Under the pieces are notes generated by a model. That model saw nothing but the letters and a program-made list of their open reading frames with translations, ran no database searches and was not told where the DNA came from. Both the position numbers and the translations under genes were made by a program. Source: an uncultured Clostridium sp. (GTDB lineage: Bacteria > Bacillota > Clostridia > TANB77 > CAG-508). From it: DNA of 64,000 nt. Shown here piece after piece: positions 45 to 60,161 of the stretch. Each line of letters opens with the position of its first letter. Within the stretch, counting starts at the first letter, position 1. Where the stretch lies: positions 28,109-92,108 of the forward strand of contig CAMEWM010000003.1 in NCBI GenBank assembly GCA_945946655.1. Reading direction: 5' to 3'.

Positions 45-1565
45 GTGAAAGTTAGATTCAATAGTATGATTAGTTCAGATGTAAAAATCCGAGAATTTAC
101 TTTAAATGCGAGAAATAAACAATATAATGCCTTCCTTGTATATATAGATGGTATGATAGATCAGGATATAATGAACAATTACATTCTAAAGCCACTAATG
201 CTAAAAAATAGCGCCAATTCTTTTGATGGTAATCAAAATAGAGTTTTAGCTGAAGTAAAAACAAATAACATTACTGTTAAAAAGATAAAGAAATTTGATA
301 TTATAGAATATATTTCTAATTGTTTACTTCCTCAAAATGCAGTCGAGAAATTATCTAAGTTTGATGACATAATAGATGGAATAAATTCTGGAAACTGTGC
401 TTTATTTATAGATACCCTTGATATAGCTTTTGATATTGAAGTTAAAGGCTTTAAACAGCGTGGCCTCGATACGCCAAATAATGAAACTGTCATTAGAGGT
501 GCACAAGTAGGATTTACAGAAAATTTACGTACAAACACCTCTCTTTTAAGGAGATATATTAATAATGAAAATTTAGTAGTGGAATCTATAAATGTTGGGA
601 AACTGAGTAAAACTTCTTGTGCAATATGCTATTTAAAAAATGTCGCCAATTCGGACTTAGTTGCAGAGGTTCGTTATCGTGTCAGCAATTTAGCTATAGA
701 CTATTTAATTTCTTCGGGTCAGCTTGAACAGCTTATACAAGATGATGATAATTCTAGTCTTCCTCAATTAATATCAACAGAAAGACCTGATAAAACTGCA
801 AATTTATTATTTGATGGAAGAGTAGCCATAATAGTAAACGGTAGTCCATACGTATTAGTAGTTCCTGCTATATTTTCTGATTTTTTATCTTCTCCGGAAG
901 ATTATAACTTAAAACATCAGTATGCAAACTTTTTAAGGATTTTAAGAGTCGTTGCCATTACATTTGCATTACTTCTTCCAGGTATATATATGGCAATAGC
1001 TAATTTTCATCAAGAAATTATTCCAACCGAATTGTTGTACACTATAATTTCAGCTAGAGAAACTGTACCATTTCCTATTTTATTTGAAATTTTAATAATG
1101 GAACTATCCTTTGAGCTTATTAGAGAAGCCAGTATTAGAGTACCTTCCCCAGTTGGTCAAACTATTGGAATTGTTGGTGCATTGATATTAGGGCAAGCGG
1201 CAGTTGATGCAAGTATAGTAAGCCCTATTCTTATAATTATCGTTTCATTCACGGGAATATGCTCTTTCTCGATTCCGGATTTTTCTCTTAGTTTTCACTT
1301 TAGAATAATGAGATTTGTATATATATTATTAGGCTCATTAGCCGGCTTTGTAGGAATTGCCGCAGGGATTTGTGTCCACTTATCAATATTAAGTAATCTA
1401 AAATCATTTGGAGTTAACTATCTAGGAAAAAGCATATTTAATACAAATAAATCTGGCAATGGAATAGTTCTTTCGCCTGCTTATCGTAGAGAAGATAGAT
1501 CTGATTTTCTAAAAAGTAAAAGGCCAAAACTACAAGATACAATTAGCATGAAGTGGAAATATTAA
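45..1565 (+). CDS. Spore germination protein, GerA-family A subunit (GerKA/GerAA-like); N-terminus may extend upstream of the window
   Basis: 506-aa ORF with hydrophilic N-terminal domain followed by multiple TM segments typical of GerAA/GerKA. Reading frame is open to the window edge (no in-frame stop in 3..44), and the listed start is GTG. It is followed immediately by B and C subunit genes. Confidence 0.85.
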   Translation: MKVRFNSMISSDVKIREFTLNARNKQYNAFLVYIDGMIDQDIMNNYILKPLMLKNSANSFDGNQNRVLAEVKTNNITVKKIKKFDIIEYISNCLLPQNAVEKLSKFDDIIDGINSGNCALFIDTLDIAFDIEVKGFKQRGLDTPNNETVIRGAQVGFTENLRTNTSLLRRYINNENLVVESINVGKLSKTSCAICYLKNVANSDLVAEVRYRVSNLAIDYLISSGQLEQLIQDDDNSSLPQLISTERPDKTANLLFDGRVAIIVNGSPYVLVVPAIFSDFLSSPEDYNLKHQYANFLRILRVVAITFALLLPGIYMAIANFHQEIIPTELLYTIISARETVPFPILFEILIMELSFELIREASIRVPSPVGQTIGIVGALILGQAAVDASIVSPILIIIVSFTGICSFSIPDFSLSFHFRIMRFVYILLGSLAGFVGIAAGICVHLSILSNLKSFGVNYLGKSIFNTNKSGNGIVLSPAYRREDRSDFLKSKRPKLQDTISMKWKY

Positions 1566-1582
1566 AGGAGAAAGTAATAAAT

Positions 1583-2689
1583 ATGAGTGTTTATAAAATT
1601 AGCTTATTAGAAGCAACCACATTAATATTAATAGTTACAGTTAACAGATTGGCTATAAGTATCCCTCAAGCAATATTGCTTTCTTGTGGTTCTTCTGCAA
1701 TTTTGAATACTATATATGTTAGTTTAATTGCAATATTGTTAACATATATTATTGTAAGACTATTTAGAAAATTTCCAGATTCAGATATTATTGATGTTTC
1801 GGAGTTTCTAGGTGGCAAATTTTTAAAATATGTAGTTGGTACTCTTTTCTTTATATATATTGTTATTATACTATCTTTTCTTTTGAGAGATTTTATAGAA
1901 ATACTACGTGTTCTTTACTACACCGATACTCCAATAGTTTATTTGTTATCTTTTTTTATTGTTGTATGTATTATTGCGAACCTATTAGGAAGCAAAAGTA
2001 TTGTAAAAACTAATGTAATACTATGTATAATAATGATTATTGGCCTATTAATCGCTTTCTCTTCAGTTATTCCTAATTTGACTATTCAAAGAATATTTCC
2101 TATTTTAGGGTATGGTAGTTATACTACATTCTTCTCAGGACTTACTAATATTTTAGCTTTTAATGGGTTGTCAATTTTGTATTTAGTTCCGCCAATGTTA
2201 AACGATAAAAAGGATTTTAAAAAAGCCAGTATGATAGCTGTATGTATATCTGCAATATTAATAATTTTAGCAACTTCTAGTATGCTTTTAGCCTTTTCTT
2301 TTAGCACAAATATTGAAAAAATATCACCATTATATACTTTACTATCAAATAATGAATTTGGGAAATATTTTCAACATCCAGAATCCTTATTTGTCTTTAC
2401 TTGGATTTTATCATTTATGAGTTATATAAATGTAGCATGCCTATTGCTAGTGCAAATATTAAAGAAGCTAACAAATGTCAAAAATGGCAAACCATTCATT
2501 TTTCCGATATGTATCGCAATTATTGTTTTAACTCTATTACCAAGAAATATGATTCAAGCTCGTGAGTTTGGAAATTATTTATCAAAATACTTTGCAACTC
2601 CAATCACTTTTATAGTCTTTCCACTCATAATGATTTTTGCTAATTTAAAATACAAAAAACAAAAAGGTAATGGAAAGGAGGAAATATAA
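1583..2689 (+). CDS. Spore germination protein, GerAB/GerKB-family permease subunit (APC-superfamily-like, about 10 TM)
   Basis: Highly hydrophobic multi-TM protein directly downstream of the A subunit, with start overlap or coupling to the A-subunit stop. ATG at 1583 is preceded by AAGGAG at 1563-1568; the track ORF starts at an alternative GTG at 1553. Confidence 0.85.
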   Translation: MSVYKISLLEATTLILIVTVNRLAISIPQAILLSCGSSAILNTIYVSLIAILLTYIIVRLFRKFPDSDIIDVSEFLGGKFLKYVVGTLFFIYIVIILSFLLRDFIEILRVLYYTDTPIVYLLSFFIVVCIIANLLGSKSIVKTNVILCIIMIIGLLIAFSSVIPNLTIQRIFPILGYGSYTTFFSGLTNILAFNGLSILYLVPPMLNDKKDFKKASMIAVCISAILIILATSSMLLAFSFSTNIEKISPLYTLLSNNEFGKYFQHPESLFVFTWILSFMSYINVACLLLVQILKKLTNVKNGKPFIFPICIAIIVLTLLPRNMIQAREFGNYLSKYFATPITFIVFPLIMIFANLKYKKQKGNGKEEI

Positions 2690-2690
2690 T

Positions 2691-3872
2691 ATGAGTATCG
2701 CATCAAATGTAAAAAAAATATCTATTATACTATTAGCTGTATTTGTAATATTATTTGCTCTATCAGCGCCTTACAGTACGCATAATATTGATAAATTAGC
2801 ATACGTGATTGCTCTTGGTTTAGATGTCGGGCAAAACGATAAGCTAAGACTTACTATTCAACTTTCCAAGCCAGAAGGAAGTTCTGGAGGTTCTTCAGGT
2901 AGTTCTTACACTAATATAATTGACACAGTTGAATGTTCTTCTATAGATTCTGGCATAAGTTTGTTTAATAGCTATATTAGCAGAAGACTTAACTTATCTC
3001 ATTGCAAAGTAATTGTAATATCTGCCAACCTTGCTGCTACGCAGGGAGTATCAGATTATATATATACTCTACTTAATAATGTTGAAATGAGTCCTCATGC
3101 AAGTATTATAGTTAGTAAAACACCCGCGGATGAATTTTTAAATAGCTCCCAACCAGAACTTGAGGATTTAGCTTCCAGATATTATGAAGTTTCTCTTGCT
3201 TCCAATAAATATACAGGTTATACTTCAAATGTATCCTTAATACGATTCTTTTCTGACTGTGTAGATACATTTACGAATCCTGTGGCCATTCTCGGATCTA
3301 TTGGCGATATGCCTATTAAGTCAAATGATAACATTGAAAATATGGGACTTGCTATTTTTAAAAATGACAAACTAGTTGGCGAATTAAGTGCTCAAGAAAC
3401 AATTTGGCACATGATTGTCTCTAATCAATTGAAATCCTGTACTATAAGTATTCCTGACCCTCTCGGCGATACAGAAAGTATAGATTTAAATCTAAAACTC
3501 GACTGTGTTCCCAAAAAATCAGTTAACTTAATTAATGGAACTCCCCATATTTCTTGTAAAATAAAAATTAAGGCTCAAATTTTATCGGCTACTCAGCAAT
3601 CCACTTCTAATGAGACTAATTATTACAAAAAAGAAAACTTGCGATTAATAGAAACAACTTGTAATGAATATTTAGAAAAAAATATTAAAGATTATTTATA
3701 TAAAACGGCCAAGACCTACAATTCCGATATAGATGGCTTTGGCAAGTATGCCGTAAAATATTTTTCAACCACTCAAGCTTGGGAAGAATATAATTGGCTT
3801 GATAATTATCATAATAGTATATTTAATGTAGAAGTTGACAGTACAATAAAGTCTGGATACAGCTTTTTATAA
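2691..3872 (+). CDS. Spore germination protein, GerAC/GerKC-family C subunit (atypical: no lipobox cysteine at the N-terminus)
   Basis: Third gene of the ger operon. It has an N-terminal hydrophobic signal or anchor segment and GerAC-like conserved blocks (VIALGLD...KLRLTIQ). AAGGAGG at 2673-2679 is followed by ATG at 2691. No Cys after the signal segment. Confidence 0.75.
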   Translation: MSIASNVKKISIILLAVFVILFALSAPYSTHNIDKLAYVIALGLDVGQNDKLRLTIQLSKPEGSSGGSSGSSYTNIIDTVECSSIDSGISLFNSYISRRLNLSHCKVIVISANLAATQGVSDYIYTLLNNVEMSPHASIIVSKTPADEFLNSSQPELEDLASRYYEVSLASNKYTGYTSNVSLIRFFSDCVDTFTNPVAILGSIGDMPIKSNDNIENMGLAIFKNDKLVGELSAQETIWHMIVSNQLKSCTISIPDPLGDTESIDLNLKLDCVPKKSVNLINGTPHISCKIKIKAQILSATQQSTSNETNYYKKENLRLIETTCNEYLEKNIKDYLYKTAKTYNSDIDGFGKYAVKYFSTTQAWEEYNWLDNYHNSIFNVEVDSTIKSGYSFL

Positions 3873-18261: not shown

Positions 18262-19527
18262 ATGAAAGATTATTTAGGAATTCAAAGTGTTAGTGCTTTA
18301 GAAGTTTTAGATTCTAGAGGTAACCCTACTGTACAAGTCGAAGTTGTTACTGAGGGTGGCTTCTCCGGTATAAGTATGGTTCCATCTGGAGCTTCTACTG
18401 GAAATTTTGAAGCAGTCGAACTACGAGATATAGATGACAGTAGATATAATGGCAAAGGTGTCACTCAAGCAGTTAATAATGTTAGTAAAATTTCTAAAAA
18501 ATTAATTGGTATGAATGTGTATGATCAAAGAAAAATCGACAATTTGCTTTTAGAATTAGATGGCACACCAAACAAATCAAATCTGGGAGCTAATGCAATT
18601 CTTGGAATCTCTTTAGCCTGTAGTAGAGCTGCTAGCAATTCTTTAGGCTCTCCACTTTATTCATATATCGGTGGAGTAAACGCACACGTACTTCCTACTC
18701 CTATGATGAACATTTTAAATGGCGGAAAGCATTCTGATAATAATTTAAGTTTACAAGAGTTTATGATTGTTCCTTATGGTGGCAGGACATTTGCAGAAAA
18801 ACTAGAAATGGGAGTTACTGTATATAATACTTTAAAAAAGTTATTAAAATTAAAGACATTAACTACTTCTGTTGGGGACGAAGGTGGATTTGCTCCCAAT
18901 TTAAAATCTACTGAAGAAGCTCTAGATTTAATTGTTGAAGCTATAGAGAAGTCAAACTATAAATTATATCAAGATATTGGAATCGCATTAGATGTAGCAG
19001 CAACAGAAATGTATAATGAGGCAAAGAAGCAAAATAAAGATGGATATTTGTTATGGAAAACTGGAGAATATAAAACTAAAGAGGAAATGATTGATTATCT
19101 TTGCAACCTTACTAATAAATACCCTATTGTTTCAATAGAAGATGGTCTTTCAGAAGAAGATTGGGATTCTTGGAAAGTTCTAACTCAAAAACTTGGAAAT
19201 AAGATTCAACTAGTTGGAGATGATTTATTTGTTACAAATGTAGCCAGATTAAAAAAAGGTATTGACTTAAAAGTTGCTAACAGTATTTTGATAAAGCCTA
19301 ATCAGATTGGTACACTAACCGAAACTCTTGACGCTATAGAGCTAGCCAAATCTAATGGTTACAAAGTCATCATTTCTCATAGATCTGGTGAGACAGAAGA
19401 TACTACTATTGCAGATATTGCAGTGGCCACAAATATTGGACAAATCAAATCTGGCGCCCCATGTAGAACAGACAGAACAGCAAAGTATAACAGATTGTTA
19501 AATATAGAACACGAATTACAAAACTGA
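18262..19527 (+). CDS. eno: Enolase (phosphopyruvate hydratase)
   Basis: [14 protein letters not shown]-terminal signature and full-length enolase barrel. GGAGG RBS at 18250, ATG at 18262; the track ORF starts further upstream at 18229. Confidence 0.95.
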
Positions 19528-45362: not shown

Positions 45363-45437
<75 letters not shown>

Positions 45438-45499: not shown

Positions 45500-46261
45500 T
45501 TAGTCTGTTACATAATCAGCAAGTTCTAAAGCAATATCAAAATGTCCTGAATCATGCTGTGTTCCTGTAAGTTCACCTTCTTTATGTCTTCTATTCCATT
45601 TTGGAGCATCAAGTAAATCACCACTTGTAAAGAATATATATAGGTTTATGTTTCTAAAATCACACATAGCTTGAATTCCCGAGCATTCCATTTCCACGGA
45701 TATACAACCATCAGCTTTATGTTTTTCAAAATTATTAACTGTTTCTCTGTAAAAAGAATCTGTTGTCCAAGTTTTCCCTTTAACAAAAGGTATTCCATTT
45801 TCCTCCATAAATTTTGCAACTATATCAGCGTTTTTGACTCTTATATAATCAGAAGCAGGTGCATAGTGATATGAAGTACCTTCATCACGATATGCCTCAG
45901 TAGGAATCATAACTTTTCCATGAGTAATTTCTTTATTTAAGCATCCACATCCTCCAAAGACTATATATTTATCAGTTTTTATTTCCGATAAAGTATCTTC
46001 TATTGTACCCACGCATGCAGGTGCACCAACATAAGTTTTATAAAAAGCAAACTTTTTATCATTATAATTTATCTGGTAAATTGGTGTAATTCCAGTAACA
46101 AATTTAAATTGTCCAATTTGTTTACAATTGTAGTTTTCTAAAACATATTTTTCAATAATGTTCGAAAATGTAACTATACATGCATCTACTATTGGAGCAT
46201 TTTCTTTTAATTTTGGATTTATTTTTGCCTCAGATTTATTATCAAAACTATCGACTATCAT
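45500..46261 (-). CDS. Nucleoside phosphorylase, PNP/UDP family 1 (purine, uridine or MTA nucleoside phosphorylase-like)
   Basis: 253 aa. SVEMECSG motif comparable to DeoD/Udp VEMEAAG. Gly-rich phosphate-binding region. Confidence 0.7.
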   Translation of the reverse strand: MIVDSFDNKSEAKINPKLKENAPIVDACIVTFSNIIEKYVLENYNCKQIGQFKFVTGITPIYQINYNDKKFAFYKTYVGAPACVGTIEDTLSEIKTDKYIVFGGCGCLNKEITHGKVMIPTEAYRDEGTSYHYAPASDYIRVKNADIVAKFMEENGIPFVKGKTWTTDSFYRETVNNFEKHKADGCISVEMECSGIQAMCDFRNINLYIFFTSGDLLDAPKWNRRHKEGELTGTQHDSGHFDIALELADYVTD

Positions 46262-46424
46262 ATCATATTATTTCCTTTCAAATTCAATATTTATAACATT
46301 TACATCAGATATAGAAAATTAACAATATTATATTAAATAATCCCATATGCATCTCTCCTTTTATATTATTATGTTTATTATACAGTAAATCTAAAAAAAA
46401 ACATAGTTTTATTTAAATATTTAT

Positions 46425-46470
46425 AAAAAACACACCCTGCAAAGTTCGTAAGAATCTGCAAGGTGTGTCC
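46425..46470 (-). terminator. GC-rich rho-independent terminator of the GC-rich orphan gene (minus strand)
   Basis: Minus-strand reading: gacacaccttgcag-loop-ctgcagggtgtg followed by TTTTTT. The stem is much more GC-rich than host terminators. Confidence 0.6.
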
Positions 46471-46519
46471 CTTATTCACCCTTTACCAGTTGGCTTAGGA
46501 TTAAAGGAAGAAAGAGTTG

Positions 46520-47185
46520 TTAATTGCTTGTGGTCTCGTCACTTTCATAATGGTGCACATACCATTCTGGATGAGTAGTCCTCTTGTAACCAGCTTCAAT
46601 CAGAGAGTTGACAGTATCGTTGACAACCGTTTTCACCTTGATCAAAAAGGTCCTGCCATACTCGTCGCAGACCATAAGGGTCTTATCATCGACAACGATA
46701 TACGTGCCAATATTTTTTCCAGTATCGTGGAGCAAGTACTTCGTCACCATTGCCGTGTAGTAGGTATTGGTAGCAGTATCATTATAACCTTCACTAATCT
46801 GCTTAACCTGCTTAATCTGCGCCAGATTCAGTTGAGCCTCTTTGATTCCTTCAGACTTAGCGATTTCGGCCGCTTTTTCGTAGGTTTCTGCCCAATTTTC
46901 CTCGTTAGCAATCTTCGCCAACCAGATATAGGCTTCAGGTTTTGTCTCTTCATTAGAAAACGGAACATAGAGACAACCGTACTTGTACCCGGCACTCTTC
47001 AGGATATCTTCGATTTCGCTACGATACGGAGTCACCATAACGTTACCACTGCCATCTGAGAAAGCAATTTGACCATTGTTCTGGCAGTAGAACTTACCTT
47101 CACAATGTTCGATCACTTGGTAGGAGAACTGCATTAGTTCCTCCAAATCTGCGATCCGGACGTGACGAATAGGTTTGTTGAACAT
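46520..47185 (-). CDS. Hypothetical protein (about 221 aa) on a GC-rich island with atypical codon usage
   Basis: Roughly 42-45% GC against about 27% for the surrounding window. Uses CTG/GCC/CGC-type codons rare in the host. Start assigned to the Met at 47185, preceded by AGAGG; the track ORF extends to 47209. No recognisable domain. Confidence 0.6.
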   Translation of the reverse strand: MFNKPIRHVRIADLEELMQFSYQVIEHCEGKFYCQNNGQIAFSDGSGNVMVTPYRSEIEDILKSAGYKYGCLYVPFSNEETKPEAYIWLAKIANEENWAETYEKAAEIAKSEGIKEAQLNLAQIKQVKQISEGYNDTATNTYYTAMVTKYLLHDTGKNIGTYIVVDDKTLMVCDEYGRTFLIKVKTVVNDTVNSLIEAGYKRTTHPEWYVHHYESDETTSN

Positions 47186-47276
47186 ATGTATACCTCTTTC
47201 TGCCCACAATTCGTGGGACTTTGTAATATGTCGTGCTCTTGAGGAGTCACGCTAACCCTTTTGGGTTATTCCTCAT

Positions 47277-47305
47277 ATTATATCATGTTTTACATAATTT
47301 GTAAA
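47277..47305 (-). promoter_or_regulatory. Near-consensus sigma-70 promoter driving the GC-rich orphan gene
   Basis: Minus strand: TTTACA, 17-nt spacer, TATAAT (+ strand coordinates 47300-47305 and 47277-47282). Confidence 0.55.
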
Positions 47306-47405
47306 CTTGTAGTATTATTGAGTTCTTTTCTTATAAAAAGAAATAACAGATTTAATAGTAATACAACCTCATATTACCTAATATATTATTATATAATTAT
47401 TAGAG

Positions 47406-48561
47406 GTGATCGCATTGATTATTAAATCTATTAAAGTAAATTTGCTAAAAAAGATGTTGTTCTTTTTATTTATCCTTTTACTAGTCTCTACAATTTTGTG
47501 TTTCTGCGCATTTAACGGGTTTAAATTTATAACTATGTTTGAGTCATCTAACACTATTGATAATGTTTTTAATTCAGAGGCAACAGGTGAAAATTTTATG
47601 AATCAAATTGCTAATATTTCTATGGAAGACTTAGCTGAAGATTCTGACTCTCCTAAATCATATATAAAGTGGGTTGATTTTCAAGGTACTTCATCAATTT
47701 TAAAAAAGCTGTCTGACTTAGATATTTCCTCGCATGTTAATAATGAACCTGTAAAATTAAATTGGATAGAACTCATGGCATACTTAGGTTGCAAATATGG
47801 TGGTAATTTAGCTTTATTTAAGCAATCTGATTTAGATACATTAGTATCAAATTTACGTGAAGGCAAGTCCATATCAGAATTAACCTCTAACATGAAATTA
47901 TATAATTATTTTTATCAGAGTTATGATGCTATATTTCATGAATATTTAGGAGAATATGAAATTGAAACTATTGATACAGATGGAAATAAATCTTACACAA
48001 AAAAATATGGCTTAAAGGTATTTCTTCCTATTGCAAAAAATTATAGTTTCAGCCATTATAAAGATTTTGGTACTTCTCGTTCTTATGGATATAGACGTTT
48101 ACATTTAGGTAATGATCTTCTTCGGAAGCATTGGTACTCCCATTATCGCAGTTGAATCTGGTTATATAGAAGCTTTAGGATGGAACCAATATGGTGGATG
48201 GAGAATTGGAATCCGTAGTTTTGATGGAAAAAGATATTATTACTATGCACATTTAAGAAAAGATCATCCATATGCAAAAAATTTATGTGAAGGTCAAATA
48301 GTTACTGCAGGTGATGTTATTGGATATTTAGGAATGACTGGTTACAGTAGTCATGAAAATGTAAACAATATTAACATTCCTCACTTACACTTTGGAATAC
48401 AACTAATTTTTAACGAGGTACAAAAAGACGGAGTTAATCAGATTTGGATTGATGTATATGAAATTGTAGAATTCTTACGAAAAAATGCTTCTCAAGTTTA
48501 TATTGCATACCCCGATACAAAAGATTTTGAAAGAAAATACGATATGATGATAATAGATTAA
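47406..48561 (+). pseudogene. M23 (LytM-type) peptidase gene interrupted by a frameshift (two overlapping ORFs 47406-48155 and 48112-48561)
   Basis: Upstream ORF ends right after the HxxxD motif (HLGNDL). The downstream ORF in the +1 frame continues with GTPIIAVESGYIE...HLHFG (HxH), so the M23 catalytic motifs are split across frames near 48115-48130. Confidence 0.7.
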
Positions 48562-48600
48562 ATATTGCATTTTTCTATATTTTTTTGTATAATTCTATTT

Positions 48601-49473
48601 ATGAAAACTATAATTGTAAATAAAGAAAATGATGGAAAAAAATTAAATAATGTTTTATTAAAGGAATTTCCTTCTCTAAGTGTAAATTCTTTTTATAAAG
48701 CATTAAGAAAAAAAGATATCAGAGTTAACGATGTAAAAGTAAATGAAAACGTATCTGTACATACTGGCGATTCTATAAAAGTTTATATTACAGATGATAT
48801 ATTATTGGGTACTTCTATAGAGGTTGAAAAGGTATTTGAAGACACTAATATTTTAGTGGTAAACAAGCCTGCAGGAATTGAAGTAACTGGAGATCAGTCA
48901 TTAACAGCTTTATTAGCACAAATATATGGCTTTGATATTATGCCTTGTCATAGACTTGATAGAAATACTTCCGGTCTTACTCTTTTTGCCAAAAATGAAC
49001 AATCACAAAATATCCTTTTTGAAAAATTTAAAAAACATGAAATTGAGAAGCACTATCTTTGTAGAGTATATGGTATTCCAAAAGAAAAACATAAAATTTT
49101 AACAGCTTTTCTTTTCAAGGATAATAAAAAATCTATTGTATATATTAGTGATTCTCCTAAAAAAGGCTATCAAAATATTATTACAGAATACACGGTAGTA
49201 TCTACTAACTCTTTTGATAACACTAGTATATTAGAGATTATTTTACATACTGGTAGAACTCATCAAATACGCGCACATCTATCTCATATTGGTTATCCTA
49301 TTATTGGAGACGGTAAATATGGAATAAACGAGATAAATAAAGAATTTAAGTGTAAAACTCAAAATCTGTGTAGCTATAAAATTAAGTTTAATTTTAAGAC
49401 AGACTCTGGTAACTTAGCCTATTTAAATGGAAAAGAAATAGAATTAAAAGATATAGAAAAAATATTTAAATAA
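48601..49473 (+). CDS. RluA-family 23S rRNA pseudouridine synthase (S4 plus PUS domains, RluD/RluC-like)
   Basis: N-terminal S4-like region, catalytic HRLDRNTSG motif. ATG at 48601 (MKTIIVNKE); the track ORF starts further upstream at 48565. Confidence 0.85.
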   Translation: MKTIIVNKENDGKKLNNVLLKEFPSLSVNSFYKALRKKDIRVNDVKVNENVSVHTGDSIKVYITDDILLGTSIEVEKVFEDTNILVVNKPAGIEVTGDQSLTALLAQIYGFDIMPCHRLDRNTSGLTLFAKNEQSQNILFEKFKKHEIEKHYLCRVYGIPKEKHKILTAFLFKDNKKSIVYISDSPKKGYQNIITEYTVVSTNSFDNTSILEIILHTGRTHQIRAHLSHIGYPIIGDGKYGINEINKEFKCKTQNLCSYKIKFNFKTDSGNLAYLNGKEIELKDIEKIFK

Positions 49474-57891: not shown

Positions 57892-59121
57892 ATGAAGAAG
57901 GAAACCTCTAGAGCCTACATTGCAAGCCACATAATTTTACGAAACAATATTTTTTATCAATGGGAGACTTTTTTTAATAATTTTCAAAAAGGAAACGAAT
58001 ATATGAGACAATATTTATGCGACATTTGGAATAGCATAGATGATACAACAATTAATCCAGACTTCTATCTAAATGATATTGATAGAAAAGTATCTAAAGA
58101 TGACTTTTATATTTTCATGAAAAAAATAAATGATTTCTATGTAATATTCTTTGTATTTCCCGAGCCAGATTCAGCTATAGCACAGGCAAAATGCGTTGCT
58201 CTAGTTGTTGGTGGAACTGTACCAAGATACATTACTATGGAAATTTCCAAAATTAATGGAACTCAAAAGTCTTATATGGCTTGTGAGTGGCATTTTGAAA
58301 ATAATAACTTTGTTCATTACAATTATGGATCTATGCAACAAAATACAATTAACGAATTTATAGATATAGTTAAGGATTTGTTGGAGAAAGCAGGAGATAA
58401 GCCAACAGCTCTTTTGGAATGTGGCTTAAAAAACAAAACATTGAATTTAGTAGATTTAAATAATATTTCTTTTAAAGATTTATTATCTTTATGTATTGGA
58501 AAAGTATATTCCAATCAACGTAAATTTATCGATTATTTAGGAGATTATAACTCTTGGAACACCGATATAACTACAGGAATATTAAAAATAGATCAAAAAG
58601 AATTTAATGTAGAGTACATAGGTACAACATCACCTAGTATAGATAACTTTTGGTACTCCTCTATAATAGAAAGATCTATTCCTAATCAGTATGTTTATTT
58701 GATGATAGCAGTAAAAAAATTGATGGAAAGTTTTGGATTAAATAAATTCGTTGAAAATAAAATTAATCTTGATAAAGATATTAATCCTTTCAACTTATCT
58801 ATGATTTATATTGCTTTTTCTCCGGAAAAAGTTACTTACTTTTGTGGCAAGGGAGATACATCTATATATATGTTTGTAAAAAATCTACCAGATAGCATAT
58901 TTGCCAAAGTTGAACCAAATTCATTCATATCTACAGTAATGGATATATTATCTACATTTAATGTTAACGCCAAATTAATGGTAAAAGCTTTTCTGATTGA
59001 AAATGATTGTGAATATACTGAAAATGAAAATAATATTATTGGCATTTTTTCTGACAAATCAAAAATAGTTTTTAAATTTGATGGAGATAATCTCATAAGC
59101 GCTTCAGGAAATCTAAACTAA
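57892..59121 (+). CDS. Hypothetical protein (409 aa), orphan
   Basis: Monocistronic on the + strand, with own terminator. No recognisable motifs. Adjacent to the tRNA-Gly locus. Confidence 0.5.
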   Translation: MKKETSRAYIASHIILRNNIFYQWETFFNNFQKGNEYMRQYLCDIWNSIDDTTINPDFYLNDIDRKVSKDDFYIFMKKINDFYVIFFVFPEPDSAIAQAKCVALVVGGTVPRYITMEISKINGTQKSYMACEWHFENNNFVHYNYGSMQQNTINEFIDIVKDLLEKAGDKPTALLECGLKNKTLNLVDLNNISFKDLLSLCIGKVYSNQRKFIDYLGDYNSWNTDITTGILKIDQKEFNVEYIGTTSPSIDNFWYSSIIERSIPNQYVYLMIAVKKLMESFGLNKFVENKINLDKDINPFNLSMIYIAFSPEKVTYFCGKGDTSIYMFVKNLPDSIFAKVEPNSFISTVMDILSTFNVNAKLMVKAFLIENDCEYTENENNIIGIFSDKSKIVFKFDGDNLISASGNLN

Positions 59122-59171: not shown

Positions 59172-59245
59172 TGGAGCAGATGAGGGGAATCGAACCCCCA
59201 CTGTCGCCTTGGGAAGGCAATGTTCTACCACTAAACTACATCTGC
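59172..59245 (-). tRNA. tRNA-Gly (anticodon CCC)
   Basis: Reverse complement gives gcagatg...catctgc acceptor, anticodon stem ttgcc/ggcga, loop ttCCCaa, T-arm ggggg-ttcgatt-cccct, CCA encoded. Confidence 0.85.
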
Positions 59246-59587
59246 ATAATCATATTTTACCACTTATTTATATTTTTTCAAGTAGTTAAGATTATTAATT
59301 TATGTTTTTACTATAAAGATAAAAAATAATCTAGAAGACCTACAATTGTCCTGTGGTCTTCTAATATATTAGTCAGAATATATTATTTAAGATGTATTGA
59401 ATCCTGTCAATTATTTTCTTAAATATAGATTCTTCTTTATATTCTACAATTTCCAAAGTTATCAAATTCTTTATCATACATATAACATTTATATCATTAT
59501 CTTTATTATATTTATATCATAAGTTAATATTTTGTACAATAAAAATTCAACCTATGTTACTATCCACCCACGACACAAGGAGGTTAC

Positions 59588-59968
59588 ATGGCAATCTTTG
59601 AAGCCGAGGGCTATTGCCCTCAGACCGCAATCTGGCGGTGGAACATCGACCATAGTGGCAATGTTGCCACTGACTACGAGGAGGTGTATAGCCTGCTACG
59701 TAGCACCATGGGTTACATGGTGTACCCTGACCCGGAGAGAACTCTTCAGTACGCACCTGAGCTGTTCTGTGGCGCCCACGCTAACAGCAGTTCTCTTGGG
59801 CGCACCCTTGCGTCTAAGTTGAAGCAGCTTCATCCTACCAGGATTGAGCTCTATGACTGCAAAGACTACTCCGATCTCCTCCAAGGAGAAACGCTACTGT
59901 CTGATGAACGCTTCACTGTCGTTCTCAGCACTGTTGGCGGGGTTCAGGTTTACATCTTCAAGCAGTAA
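59588..59968 (+). CDS. Hypothetical protein (126 aa) encoded on a short high-GC island
   Basis: AGGAGG RBS 7 nt before ATG at 59588. Roughly 50-55% GC against about 27% for the host. Followed by a GC-rich terminator. No recognisable domain. Confidence 0.6.
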   Translation: MAIFEAEGYCPQTAIWRWNIDHSGNVATDYEEVYSLLRSTMGYMVYPDPERTLQYAPELFCGAHANSSSLGRTLASKLKQLHPTRIELYDCKDYSDLLQGETLLSDERFTVVLSTVGGVQVYIFKQ

Positions 59969-59982
59969 CCAGGACCGATGGA

Positions 59983-60017
59983 GGGGGCACTTATAACAGT
60001 GCCCCCTTTGCTTTTTT
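59983..60017 (+). terminator. GC-rich rho-independent terminator of the 126-aa gene
   Basis: gggggcact-tataac-agtgccccc followed by tttgctttttt. Confidence 0.75.

Positions 60018-60087: not shown

Positions 60088-60161
<74 letters not shown>

Follow-up and report, generated by a model that had tools for sequence, protein, structure and literature searches.

A GC-rich single-gene transcription unit with a structured mRNA leader in an uncultured gut Clostridium

The locus, its composition and its protein

We analyzed a compositional island in a 64,000-nucleotide stretch of DNA from an uncultured Clostridium sp. (contig CAMEWM010000003.1; the whole stretch is referred to as the window). The island lies at 46425-47305 and contains a single open reading frame (ORF) on the minus strand, encoding a protein of 221 amino acids (aa). 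A previous sequence-only reading had described it as an orphan gene carrying everything needed for its own expression, and had suggested that it was acquired horizontally, or introduced artificially, as a ready-to-express cassette. Promoter, ribosome-binding site and terminator could all be located, and the comparative evidence given below indicates that we are dealing with a natural transcription unit of a single gene that is resident in the chromosome. As regards its unusual composition, the interpretation that we favor, and to which we give an even chance of being right, is that of a resident, recombining gene with selection acting on the structure of its mRNA.

The ORF spans 46520-47185 (minus strand, as are all elements of the unit) when read from the ATG at 47185. 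The automatic ORF listing starts it at a TTG at 47209, which gives 229 aa; the ATG was taken as the start because the homologues all begin there with MF..PI and a strong Shine-Dalgarno (SD) sequence, AGAAAGAGG (47193-47201), lies 7 nt upstream. A sigma-A type promoter (47277-47305) combines the -35 element TTTACA (47300-47305), a 17-nt spacer ending in TG and the -10 element TATAAT (47277-47282). It matches the consensus at 11 of 12 positions and is the top-scoring promoter in the region, and homologues retain the -35 element, the 17-nt spacer, TRTG and TATAAT. The unit ends in an intrinsic terminator (46423-46475), in which the long G+C-rich hairpin GGGACACACCUUGCAG...UUGCAGGGUGUG precedes U6; a simple scan did not pick up this terminator because its loop measures 12 nt. 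A small predicted hairpin (46478-46501) occupies the interval between this terminator and the anti-SD element described below, and L007, L021 and L022 (L-numbers denote other loci or alleles of the family, WIN the allele of the window) have a hairpin in this position, too. The fold of the whole 3' untranslated region (3'UTR) has an energy of -37.6 kcal/mol and a z-score of -5.7. The near-consensus promoter, strong ribosome-binding site and GC-rich terminator seen by the sequence-only reading are all borne out.

The island also has the composition first estimated for it (42-45% GC), with 42.3% GC for 46425-47305 and 43.5% for the coding sequence (CDS) versus 29.4% for the whole window; the intergenic DNA immediately flanking it has 16-19% GC. 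In a 100-nt profile, GC rises at approximately 46400-46450, at the terminator, and drops at approximately 47250-47300, at the promoter, both in sharp steps. The anomaly is restricted to third codon positions, GC1 and GC2 being normal: the GC fraction at third positions (GC3) is 0.509, compared to 0.126-0.284 in every other window ORF of at least 150 aa. Under host usage, the synonymous-codon log-likelihood of the gene falls 8.4 standard deviations below the mean of 46 window genes. What is avoided are codons ending in A (A3 16% versus 47%), while the fraction ending in T (T3) is unchanged, and ATA, TTA, GTA and AGA are not used at all. The frequent use of CTG and GCC claimed earlier holds (4/12 leucine codons, host 2%, and 3/15 alanine codons, host 7%), whereas CGC, named along with them, is unused. 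Host translational selection was rejected as the cause of this codon usage, as enolase has a GC3 of only 0.20 and prefers T-ending rather than G/C-ending codons. Across the family, GC3 ranges between 0.20 and 0.62 and is at or above host level at each sampled locus, with a host flank GC of 0.26-0.37.

An antisense ORF of 180 aa (46517-47059, plus strand) is codon-aligned exactly with the sense frame. Since the gene hardly uses TTA, CTA and TCA codons, this antisense frame stays open; it is not conserved in homologues and was dismissed as a by-product rather than a real gene. Third-position A/T content is also skewed by strand in the window: the plus-strand genes compared (66-3872, 18262-19527, 47454-49473 and 57892-59121) have T3 above A3, and most minus-strand genes have A3 above T3, the exceptions being the family gene and the nucleoside phosphorylase gene (PNP) next to it. 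The host is a spore former, since the window carries a gerA operon, a GPR protease gene and spoIIM.

A search of 5.8 billion proteins returned 91 homologues with 37-58% identity, none of them named or with a Pfam domain, and a profile search of 1.84 billion representatives returned 312 clusters. At 90% identity, the cluster of the window protein comprises 36 variants, which occur on well over 100 contigs. As far as sampled, the family is confined to low-GC gut Clostridia, mostly metagenome-assembled genomes. The absence of a recognizable domain noted before was confirmed by sequence searches of Pfam, NCBIfam, PHROGs, PADLOC and PDB, all of which were empty. The AlphaFold2 model (pLDDT 95.8, pTM 0.88), for which no structural relative was found, is built of two modules, each of beta-sheet plus helix, with a long helix (residues 84-111) connecting them. 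The two halves are related to each other (hhalign E 1.6e-4), which marks an internal repeat, and the motifs VTPYR and CDEYGRT are invariant in the family. The protein is acidic (pI 5.1). Based on unsaturated allele pairs only, dN/dS amounts to 0.12-0.15, which argues for a real protein under purifying selection.

The N-terminal module (QNNG..AF.D..G..VTPYR.E....L..GY....VPFSNGE) and the helical linker recur as two to eight tandem repeats in distant relatives of up to 951 aa. These long proteins (P0096 with 656 aa, P0130 with 951 aa, P0146, P0150 and P0267) belong to other metagenomic lineages and are all without annotation; one repeat-bearing protein is labelled Patescibacteria (HUV42861.1). 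L037 carries two paralogues of the family in tandem; the second (3060-3487, MFYAPIRHTPLKY...) follows immediately downstream and is preceded by a promoter of its own and by a leader with only two hairpins, P2 being absent (see below). Regarding function, we would guess, with low confidence, that the protein is abundant in the cytosol and of a binding or immunity type, and that it might bind its own leader. With the immunity proteins of polymorphic toxins it has in common only hypervariability and the tandem paralogue of L037; no Imm or SUKH match was obtained via Pfam or PADLOC, and no toxin gene lies beside the family gene in the four listed contexts (window locus, L007, L009 and L010). The divergent upstream gene of the window, which encodes 246 aa (p246), was rejected as a conserved functional partner, as it is not homologous to the upstream gene of L007.

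Structure in the leader and predicted structure of the whole transcript

The promoter is followed by a conserved structured 5' leader (47186-47270), supported by a covariance model and by single-sequence folding. Divergent homologues in differing genomic contexts have in common the strong promoter and a leader of ~90 nt, and every leader folds on its own into three hairpins, the window leader with a single-sequence z-score of -3.7. In the window, these hairpins are P1 (47263-47267/47254-47258), P2 (47244-47251/47232-47238) and P3 (47213-47217/47203-47207, with the loop GAAUU), and an A/U-rich linker (47218-47231) lies between P2 and P3.

The covariance model was seeded with a hand-specified structure, followed by model-guided alignment; plain MAFFT alignment of the leaders with RNAalifold gave only part of P3, the helices being misaligned. 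At 33 loci the model finds one match per locus, always immediately 5' of the family gene, and with filters off a second-generation model gives the window leader 97 bits versus 15 bits for the next site. In the model-guided alignment, 15/17 leader pairs changed on both sides, a count that has to be read with the caveat that this alignment is fitted to the structure. Leader cells are paired in 97.9% of cases versus 23-46% with slid partners, and the observed covariation was reached by no shuffle. Beside the helices, four unpaired elements are conserved: UACC between P1 and P2, the A/U-rich linker, the P3 loop GAAUU and the SD. A distant clade has shorter leaders, which the leader model does not detect. 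Rfam 15 gave no match at gathering score in the window, and over 46380-47360 with E values up to 10 it gave chance matches only (a snoRNA and the lambda thermometer). These results indicate that the leader motif is new, absent from Rfam and specific to this family.

Such a leader could be the main regulator of the gene, either as a metabolite riboswitch or as an autoregulatory protein-binding site, in which case the complementarity of the 3'UTR described below would be incidental. The covarying stems and the conserved unpaired UACC, linker and GAAUU loop would suit this role; the motif is exclusive to this gene family, as autoregulation would predict, and the protein has two repeated modules. 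However, the leader consists of three independent hairpins without a junction or a supported pseudoknot, its own fold leaves the SD unpaired, and it contains no U-tract or terminator. Since the leader neither sequesters the SD nor contains a terminator, the layout of a classical riboswitch is not fitted. A pseudoknot between the UACC of the P1-P2 junction (J1/2) and a GGUA in the region after the SD was tried and rejected, as alleles without GGUA give no support. Furthermore, the protein is acidic, and the anti-SD 8-mer is conserved where the 3'UTRs otherwise differ. We consider it quite unlikely that the leader is the main regulator; a regulatory leader would in any case be compatible with selection on mRNA structure and not exclusive of it.

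At the other end of the transcript, 3 nt past the stop codon, the 3'UTR carries the anti-SD element CUCUUUCU (46509-46516), a perfect complement of AGAAAGAG in the SD. The same 8-mer follows the stop codon in L007, L009, L012, L021 and L022, that is in six alleles together with WIN, which are saturated at synonymous sites against each other and whose 3'UTRs otherwise differ. In the window, the SD:anti-SD duplex has an energy of -14.6 kcal/mol; it is stronger than each CDS window tested in WIN, L007 and L012. Other alleles pair their 5' and 3' ends by different sequences, L011 by its start region with its stop region, and L015, L049 and L045 by solutions of their own.

In minimum free energy (MFE) folds of whole transcripts, the SD/start region pairs with the stop/3'UTR region in 16/22 alleles, compared to 3/22 window control genes; for the SD alone, the respective counts are 13/22 and 0/22 under the same treatment. 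The 848-nt window transcript (-250 kcal/mol, z-score -4.2 against dinucleotide shuffles) is closed via SD:anti-SD in both the MFE and the centroid structure. According to the partition function, the probability that the SD is unpaired amounts to ~0.4-0.7 at nascent lengths up to the stop codon and to 0.0-0.19 after addition of the 3'UTR (WIN, L007, L009, L012, L020 and L022), with a change from 0.64 to 0.19 for the window allele. From the predicted folding and a complementarity that is itself visible in the sequence, we infer that the transcript may fold back and mask its SD.

The coding sequence itself also appears to be highly structured. All 18 family CDSs examined are more stable than their synonymous-codon permutations (z-scores of -1.2 to -8.1, mean ~-3.3), whereas eight window genes of similar length average ~0 in the same test (range -2.2 to +2.1). 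Low-GC3 alleles likewise show excess CDS structure.

A second GC-rich island of the window lies at 59532-60010 (48% GC, A3 9.5%), between tRNA-Gly(CCC) (59172-59245) and tRNA-Gly(UCC) (60088-60161). It contains an ORF of 126 aa (59588-59968, plus strand) with a promoter-like region of its own and a strong terminator, and its CDS is far more structured than synonymous permutations (z-score -5.0). The encoded protein is a strict orphan, finding among 5.8 billion proteins only its own cluster (12 variants on ~120 contigs) and no match in Pfam, NCBIfam, PHROG or PADLOC. No relation exists between the leader of this second gene and that of the 46425-47305 island, and no homologue of this island or of p246 was found near other family members.

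Residence at the locus and exchange of alleles

Twenty-two contigs from independent metagenome assemblies carry the identical neighboring PNP protein, and all six of those displayed (6/6) have the 221-aa gene beside it, with the phosphorylase on one side and the 246-aa, M23 and RluD genes on the other. The copies of the gene on these contigs differ by natural single-nucleotide polymorphisms (SNPs), 8 synonymous and 6 non-synonymous, at a density about twice that of the flanks, and no sampled contig of the species lacks the gene. The near-consensus promoter and ribosome-binding site, the start codon within CATATG and the E. coli-like look of the codon usage might have raised the suspicion of engineering or synthesis, or of an artefact of assembly or contamination. 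Such an origin is refuted by the many independent assemblies with natural polymorphism; in addition, the gene belongs to a large natural family (the 91 homologues), whose members have the layout of promoter, leader and terminator in common and whose leaders covary, and it has no match in plasmid collections. The proposed artificial introduction is therefore dismissed, and we regard it as next to impossible.

The direct neighbor of the gene is not tRNA-Gly, as had been stated: tRNA-Gly(UCC) (45363-45437) is 1.06 kb away, and PNP (PNP_UDP_1, 45500-46261, minus strand) lies in between. PNP has normal host GC and is 77-88% identical in many Clostridia/Lachnospiraceae, where its contexts are unrelated and include resolvase, Mob_Pre and YhcG-like genes; it has the look of a cargo gene that is widely exchanged. 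A search for an empty site via this neighbor retrieved none, because the PNP anchor is itself mobile: orthologues with 83-88% identity stand next to resolvase and Mob genes in contexts that are unrelated. The claim that mobility genes are missing stands, as the 5-6 kb on each side of the gene hold only housekeeping Pfam families and no integrase, transposase or recombinase. The only direct repeats flanking the island are short, AT-rich chance ones, among them a 23-nt imperfect repeat (46350-46372/47370-47392, 78%) that was considered and judged a chance match.

In a distant clade, whose protein is 35% identical to that of the window, the family gene lies beside genes for a P-type ATPase (31% aa identity) and an RluD-like synthase (33% aa identity). 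These neighbors appear to be those of the window, rearranged, and their joint occurrence is unlikely to be due to chance. All sampled hosts are low-GC, with the exception of L029, a short contig with too little flank to judge, and at none of the sampled loci does the gene sit in high-GC surroundings that match it. Orthologues at the same position with similar composition are thus largely what the related genomes contain, and together with the neighbors kept in the distant clade they point to an old resident of the locus.

In other species, alleles are exchanged at the resident locus. In five independent cases, near-identical flanks enclose alleles whose proteins are only 48-74% identical: L021 versus L022/24/25 (flanks 99.1-99.6%, protein 60-61%), L017 versus the L016 group (95.6-98%, 48-49%), L027/28 versus L032/33/35 (~97.5% on one side, 48%), L012 versus L020 (96.4%, 54%) and L010 versus L038 (96.7%, 74%). 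Synonymous divergence (pS) is saturated for L021/L022 (0.81) and L012/L020 (0.73) and lower for L010/L038 (0.59). The divergent block spans the CDS with variable breakpoints, running from -77 to the stop codon in L021/L022, from -150 to +825 in L012/L020 and from +74 to +1100 in L010/L038. Broadly, the breakpoints are located in the promoter or leader and at the stop codon or in the 3'UTR. This pattern fits homologous recombination and not a site-specific mechanism, and the conserved leader and 3'UTR plausibly serve as homology for the exchange. Seen in five species or strain groups other than that of the window, the exchange substitutes one orthologue for another at a locus that is already occupied and does not insert a new gene. 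The flanks of L027/L028 versus L030-L035 (~97.5% versus ~78%) place the family gene at the edge of an inter-species recombination tract.

On a smaller scale, the L004 sample differs from the window by five substitutions within 22 nt (47048-47069, codons 39-46) and is nearly identical over the remainder, which suggests a short gene-conversion tract from another allele. A diversity-generating retroelement target was rejected, as the window holds no second copy of island segments and no reverse transcriptase is found among the neighbors; allele differences saturated across synonymous sites and a dN/dS of 0.14 also count against it.

These data bear on the possibility that the gene was recently acquired as a ready-to-express cassette from a donor of ~45% GC and still carries unameliorated codons. 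The codon usage far off that of the host and the sharp edges at promoter and terminator would be expected from such an import, and alleles of the family have indeed been replaced by recombination in other species. L012 and L020 differ in GC3 (0.33 versus 0.53) in the same background, from which it follows that some alleles may have spent time elsewhere; the raised SNP density of the island, the five-SNP micro-tract of L004 and the patchy, mobile-looking PNP gene next door point in the same direction. However, no donor came to light, the nearest non-self homologue among the 5.8 billion proteins being 58% identical, and none of the sampled hosts, L029 being too short to judge, has the gene at its own composition. 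Plasmid, phage and viral collections gave no match at the protein or DNA level, and neither integrase, transposase nor flanking repeats mark an insertion. The gene is present on each sampled contig of the species, and its neighborhood is kept in the distant clade. A simple GC-rich donor would also predict something other than the depletion of A3 alone with T3 spared, and import leaves the positional excess of RNA structure unexplained. We consider recent import unlikely. Of the horizontal acquisition proposed at the outset, the recent foreign donor is weakly supported, whereas exchange of the cassette by homologous recombination is real within the family.

Frequent allele exchange could also lift GC3 neutrally, by GC-biased gene conversion (gBGC) at a recombination hot spot. 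The locus is such a hot spot in at least five backgrounds, and the GC elevation coincides with the exchanged segment. However, a GC3 of 0.51 versus 0.18 is far above the effects generally reported for bacterial gBGC, only A-ending codons are depleted with T3 unchanged, and some equally recombining loci have alleles with a GC3 of 0.25-0.32. The conserved anti-SD, the 5'-3' closure and the z-scores that depend on codon placement would not be predicted by this process, which we regard as very improbable.

Interpretation and relation to known systems

According to the interpretation of a resident, recombining gene under selection for mRNA structure, the near-consensus sigma-A promoter would produce an mRNA with a three-hairpin leader, an A/U-rich stretch and a strong SD. 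This transcript would be selected for heavy base pairing, and the G/C excess at synonymous sites would supply the pairing in an AT-rich genome. Once finished, the transcript would fold back and its 3'UTR would mask the ribosome-binding site, so that only nascent transcripts would be translated unless an activating step, such as trimming of the 3' end, unwinding or the binding of a factor, took place; in its closed form the RNA would resist nucleases. In other species, the whole unit, leader and 3'UTR included, is passed as an allelic cassette between strains and between species through homologous recombination, with variable breakpoints.

Several observations weigh against this interpretation. 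The window allele is the weakest in the permutation test, and with a z-score of only -1.24 its CDS-only test is not significant on its own. Its low folding energy comes largely from its GC content, so that the causal direction, with GC3 selected by way of structure, is presumptive. GC3 varies between 0.20 and 0.62 among alleles, even in the same background, which fits differing histories of import and amelioration as well. Pairs within the CDS are barely common between alleles (331 versus 159 by chance in 78 comparisons); a conserved specific CDS fold was rejected on account of this weak positional overlap, and any signal of selection would concern structuredness in general and not one fold. 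Moreover, 6/22 alleles show no 5'-3' closure in the MFE structure, all RNA folding is predicted, with MFE structures of ~850-nt RNAs being unreliable, and the allele counts are not independent because the alleles are phylogenetically related.

The closest parallel to the proposed fold-back is the icaR mRNA of Staphylococcus aureus, whose SD is complementary to an anti-SD motif of its 3'UTR, a pairing that was proposed to block translation initiation (PMC3868564). The family gene likewise has a 3'UTR anti-SD complementary to its own SD; unlike icaR, its anti-SD lies only 3 nt past the stop codon, its CDS is unusually structured, and the element is specific to one protein family. In the hok mRNA of type I toxin-antitoxin systems, 5'-3' closure (fbi/tac) keeps the mRNA inert and stable until 3' processing activates it. 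In contrast to hok, which encodes a small membrane toxin, the present gene encodes a soluble, acidic protein of 221 aa and has neither plasmid association nor an evident antisense RNA gene. A type I toxin-antitoxin system was rejected in view of this product, and because the antisense ORF is not conserved and no conserved antisense feature was found. The Bacillus subtilis hbs mRNA combines a structured 5'UTR and a strong SD with a 5'/3'-UTR interaction that couples stability to translation, in a monocistronic gene with strong expression (PMC5737220). The unit described here resembles it in its structured 5'UTR, strong SD, predicted 5'/3'-UTR interaction and monocistronic organization; the hbs interaction, however, shields an RNase Y site and not the SD, and the composition of hbs is ordinary for its host.

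With horizontally acquired islets and ORFans, the gene has in common sharply atypical codons bounded by its own promoter and terminator and the lack of a known domain; it differs from them in having no mobility genes, att-like repeats or donor and in belonging to a family whose members reside in related genomes and display the anomaly there as well. Pneumococcal capsule and pherotype loci and staphylococcal agr groups comprise deep allelic lineages exchanged by homologous recombination. The near-identical genomes, the saturated synonymous divergence at one locus and the breakpoints in conserved flanks are similar here, but the locus consists of a single cytosolic gene, and its homology arms are apparently its own leader and 3'UTR. 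Finally, Obelisk RNAs, found in gut microbiome data, are self-complementary and encode the ~200-aa Oblin-1 of novel fold (bioRxiv 10.1101/2024.01.20.576352). A strongly self-complementary RNA of ~0.85-1 kb, a ~200-aa protein of novel fold and an origin in the gut microbiome recall these elements; the identification was rejected, as the locus is DNA-encoded and chromosomal, with promoter and terminator, and the beta-rich acidic protein has neither a helical 'globule' nor the basic domain-A with GYxDxG.

A bolder proposal is that the family represents a new class of 'self-locking' bacterial mRNAs, characterized by a covarying leader, a hyper-structured CDS and post-stop anti-SD closure, with the whole transcript under pairing selection; we hold this as a tentative possibility and lean against it. 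If true, translation would be possible only co-transcriptionally or after unlocking, for which germination, stress or an attack by nucleases could be triggers. Such RNAs would then be marked in general by a GC3 spike within an AT-rich genome, which the second island of the window also has, and the deep allelic polymorphism would point to conflict (immunity or defence) or to self-recognition.

The locus would add two entries to current catalogues, a 5' leader motif absent from Rfam and a repeat module (QNNG...VTPYR...PFSNGE) absent from Pfam and PDB. If selection on mRNA structure in a resident, recombining gene is indeed what shaped the locus, it would represent chromosomal control by 5'-3' fold-back of a whole transcript in Firmicutes, for which, to our knowledge, few cases are known (icaR and hbs). 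Compositional islands would then not always be foreign DNA, and a GC3 spike could be the footprint of selection on mRNA structure, which would call for caution with detectors of horizontal gene transfer and would provide a handle for finding similar genes. For the family in its gut hosts, the swap of one transcription unit between otherwise identical strains would mark it as a target of balancing or frequency-dependent selection.

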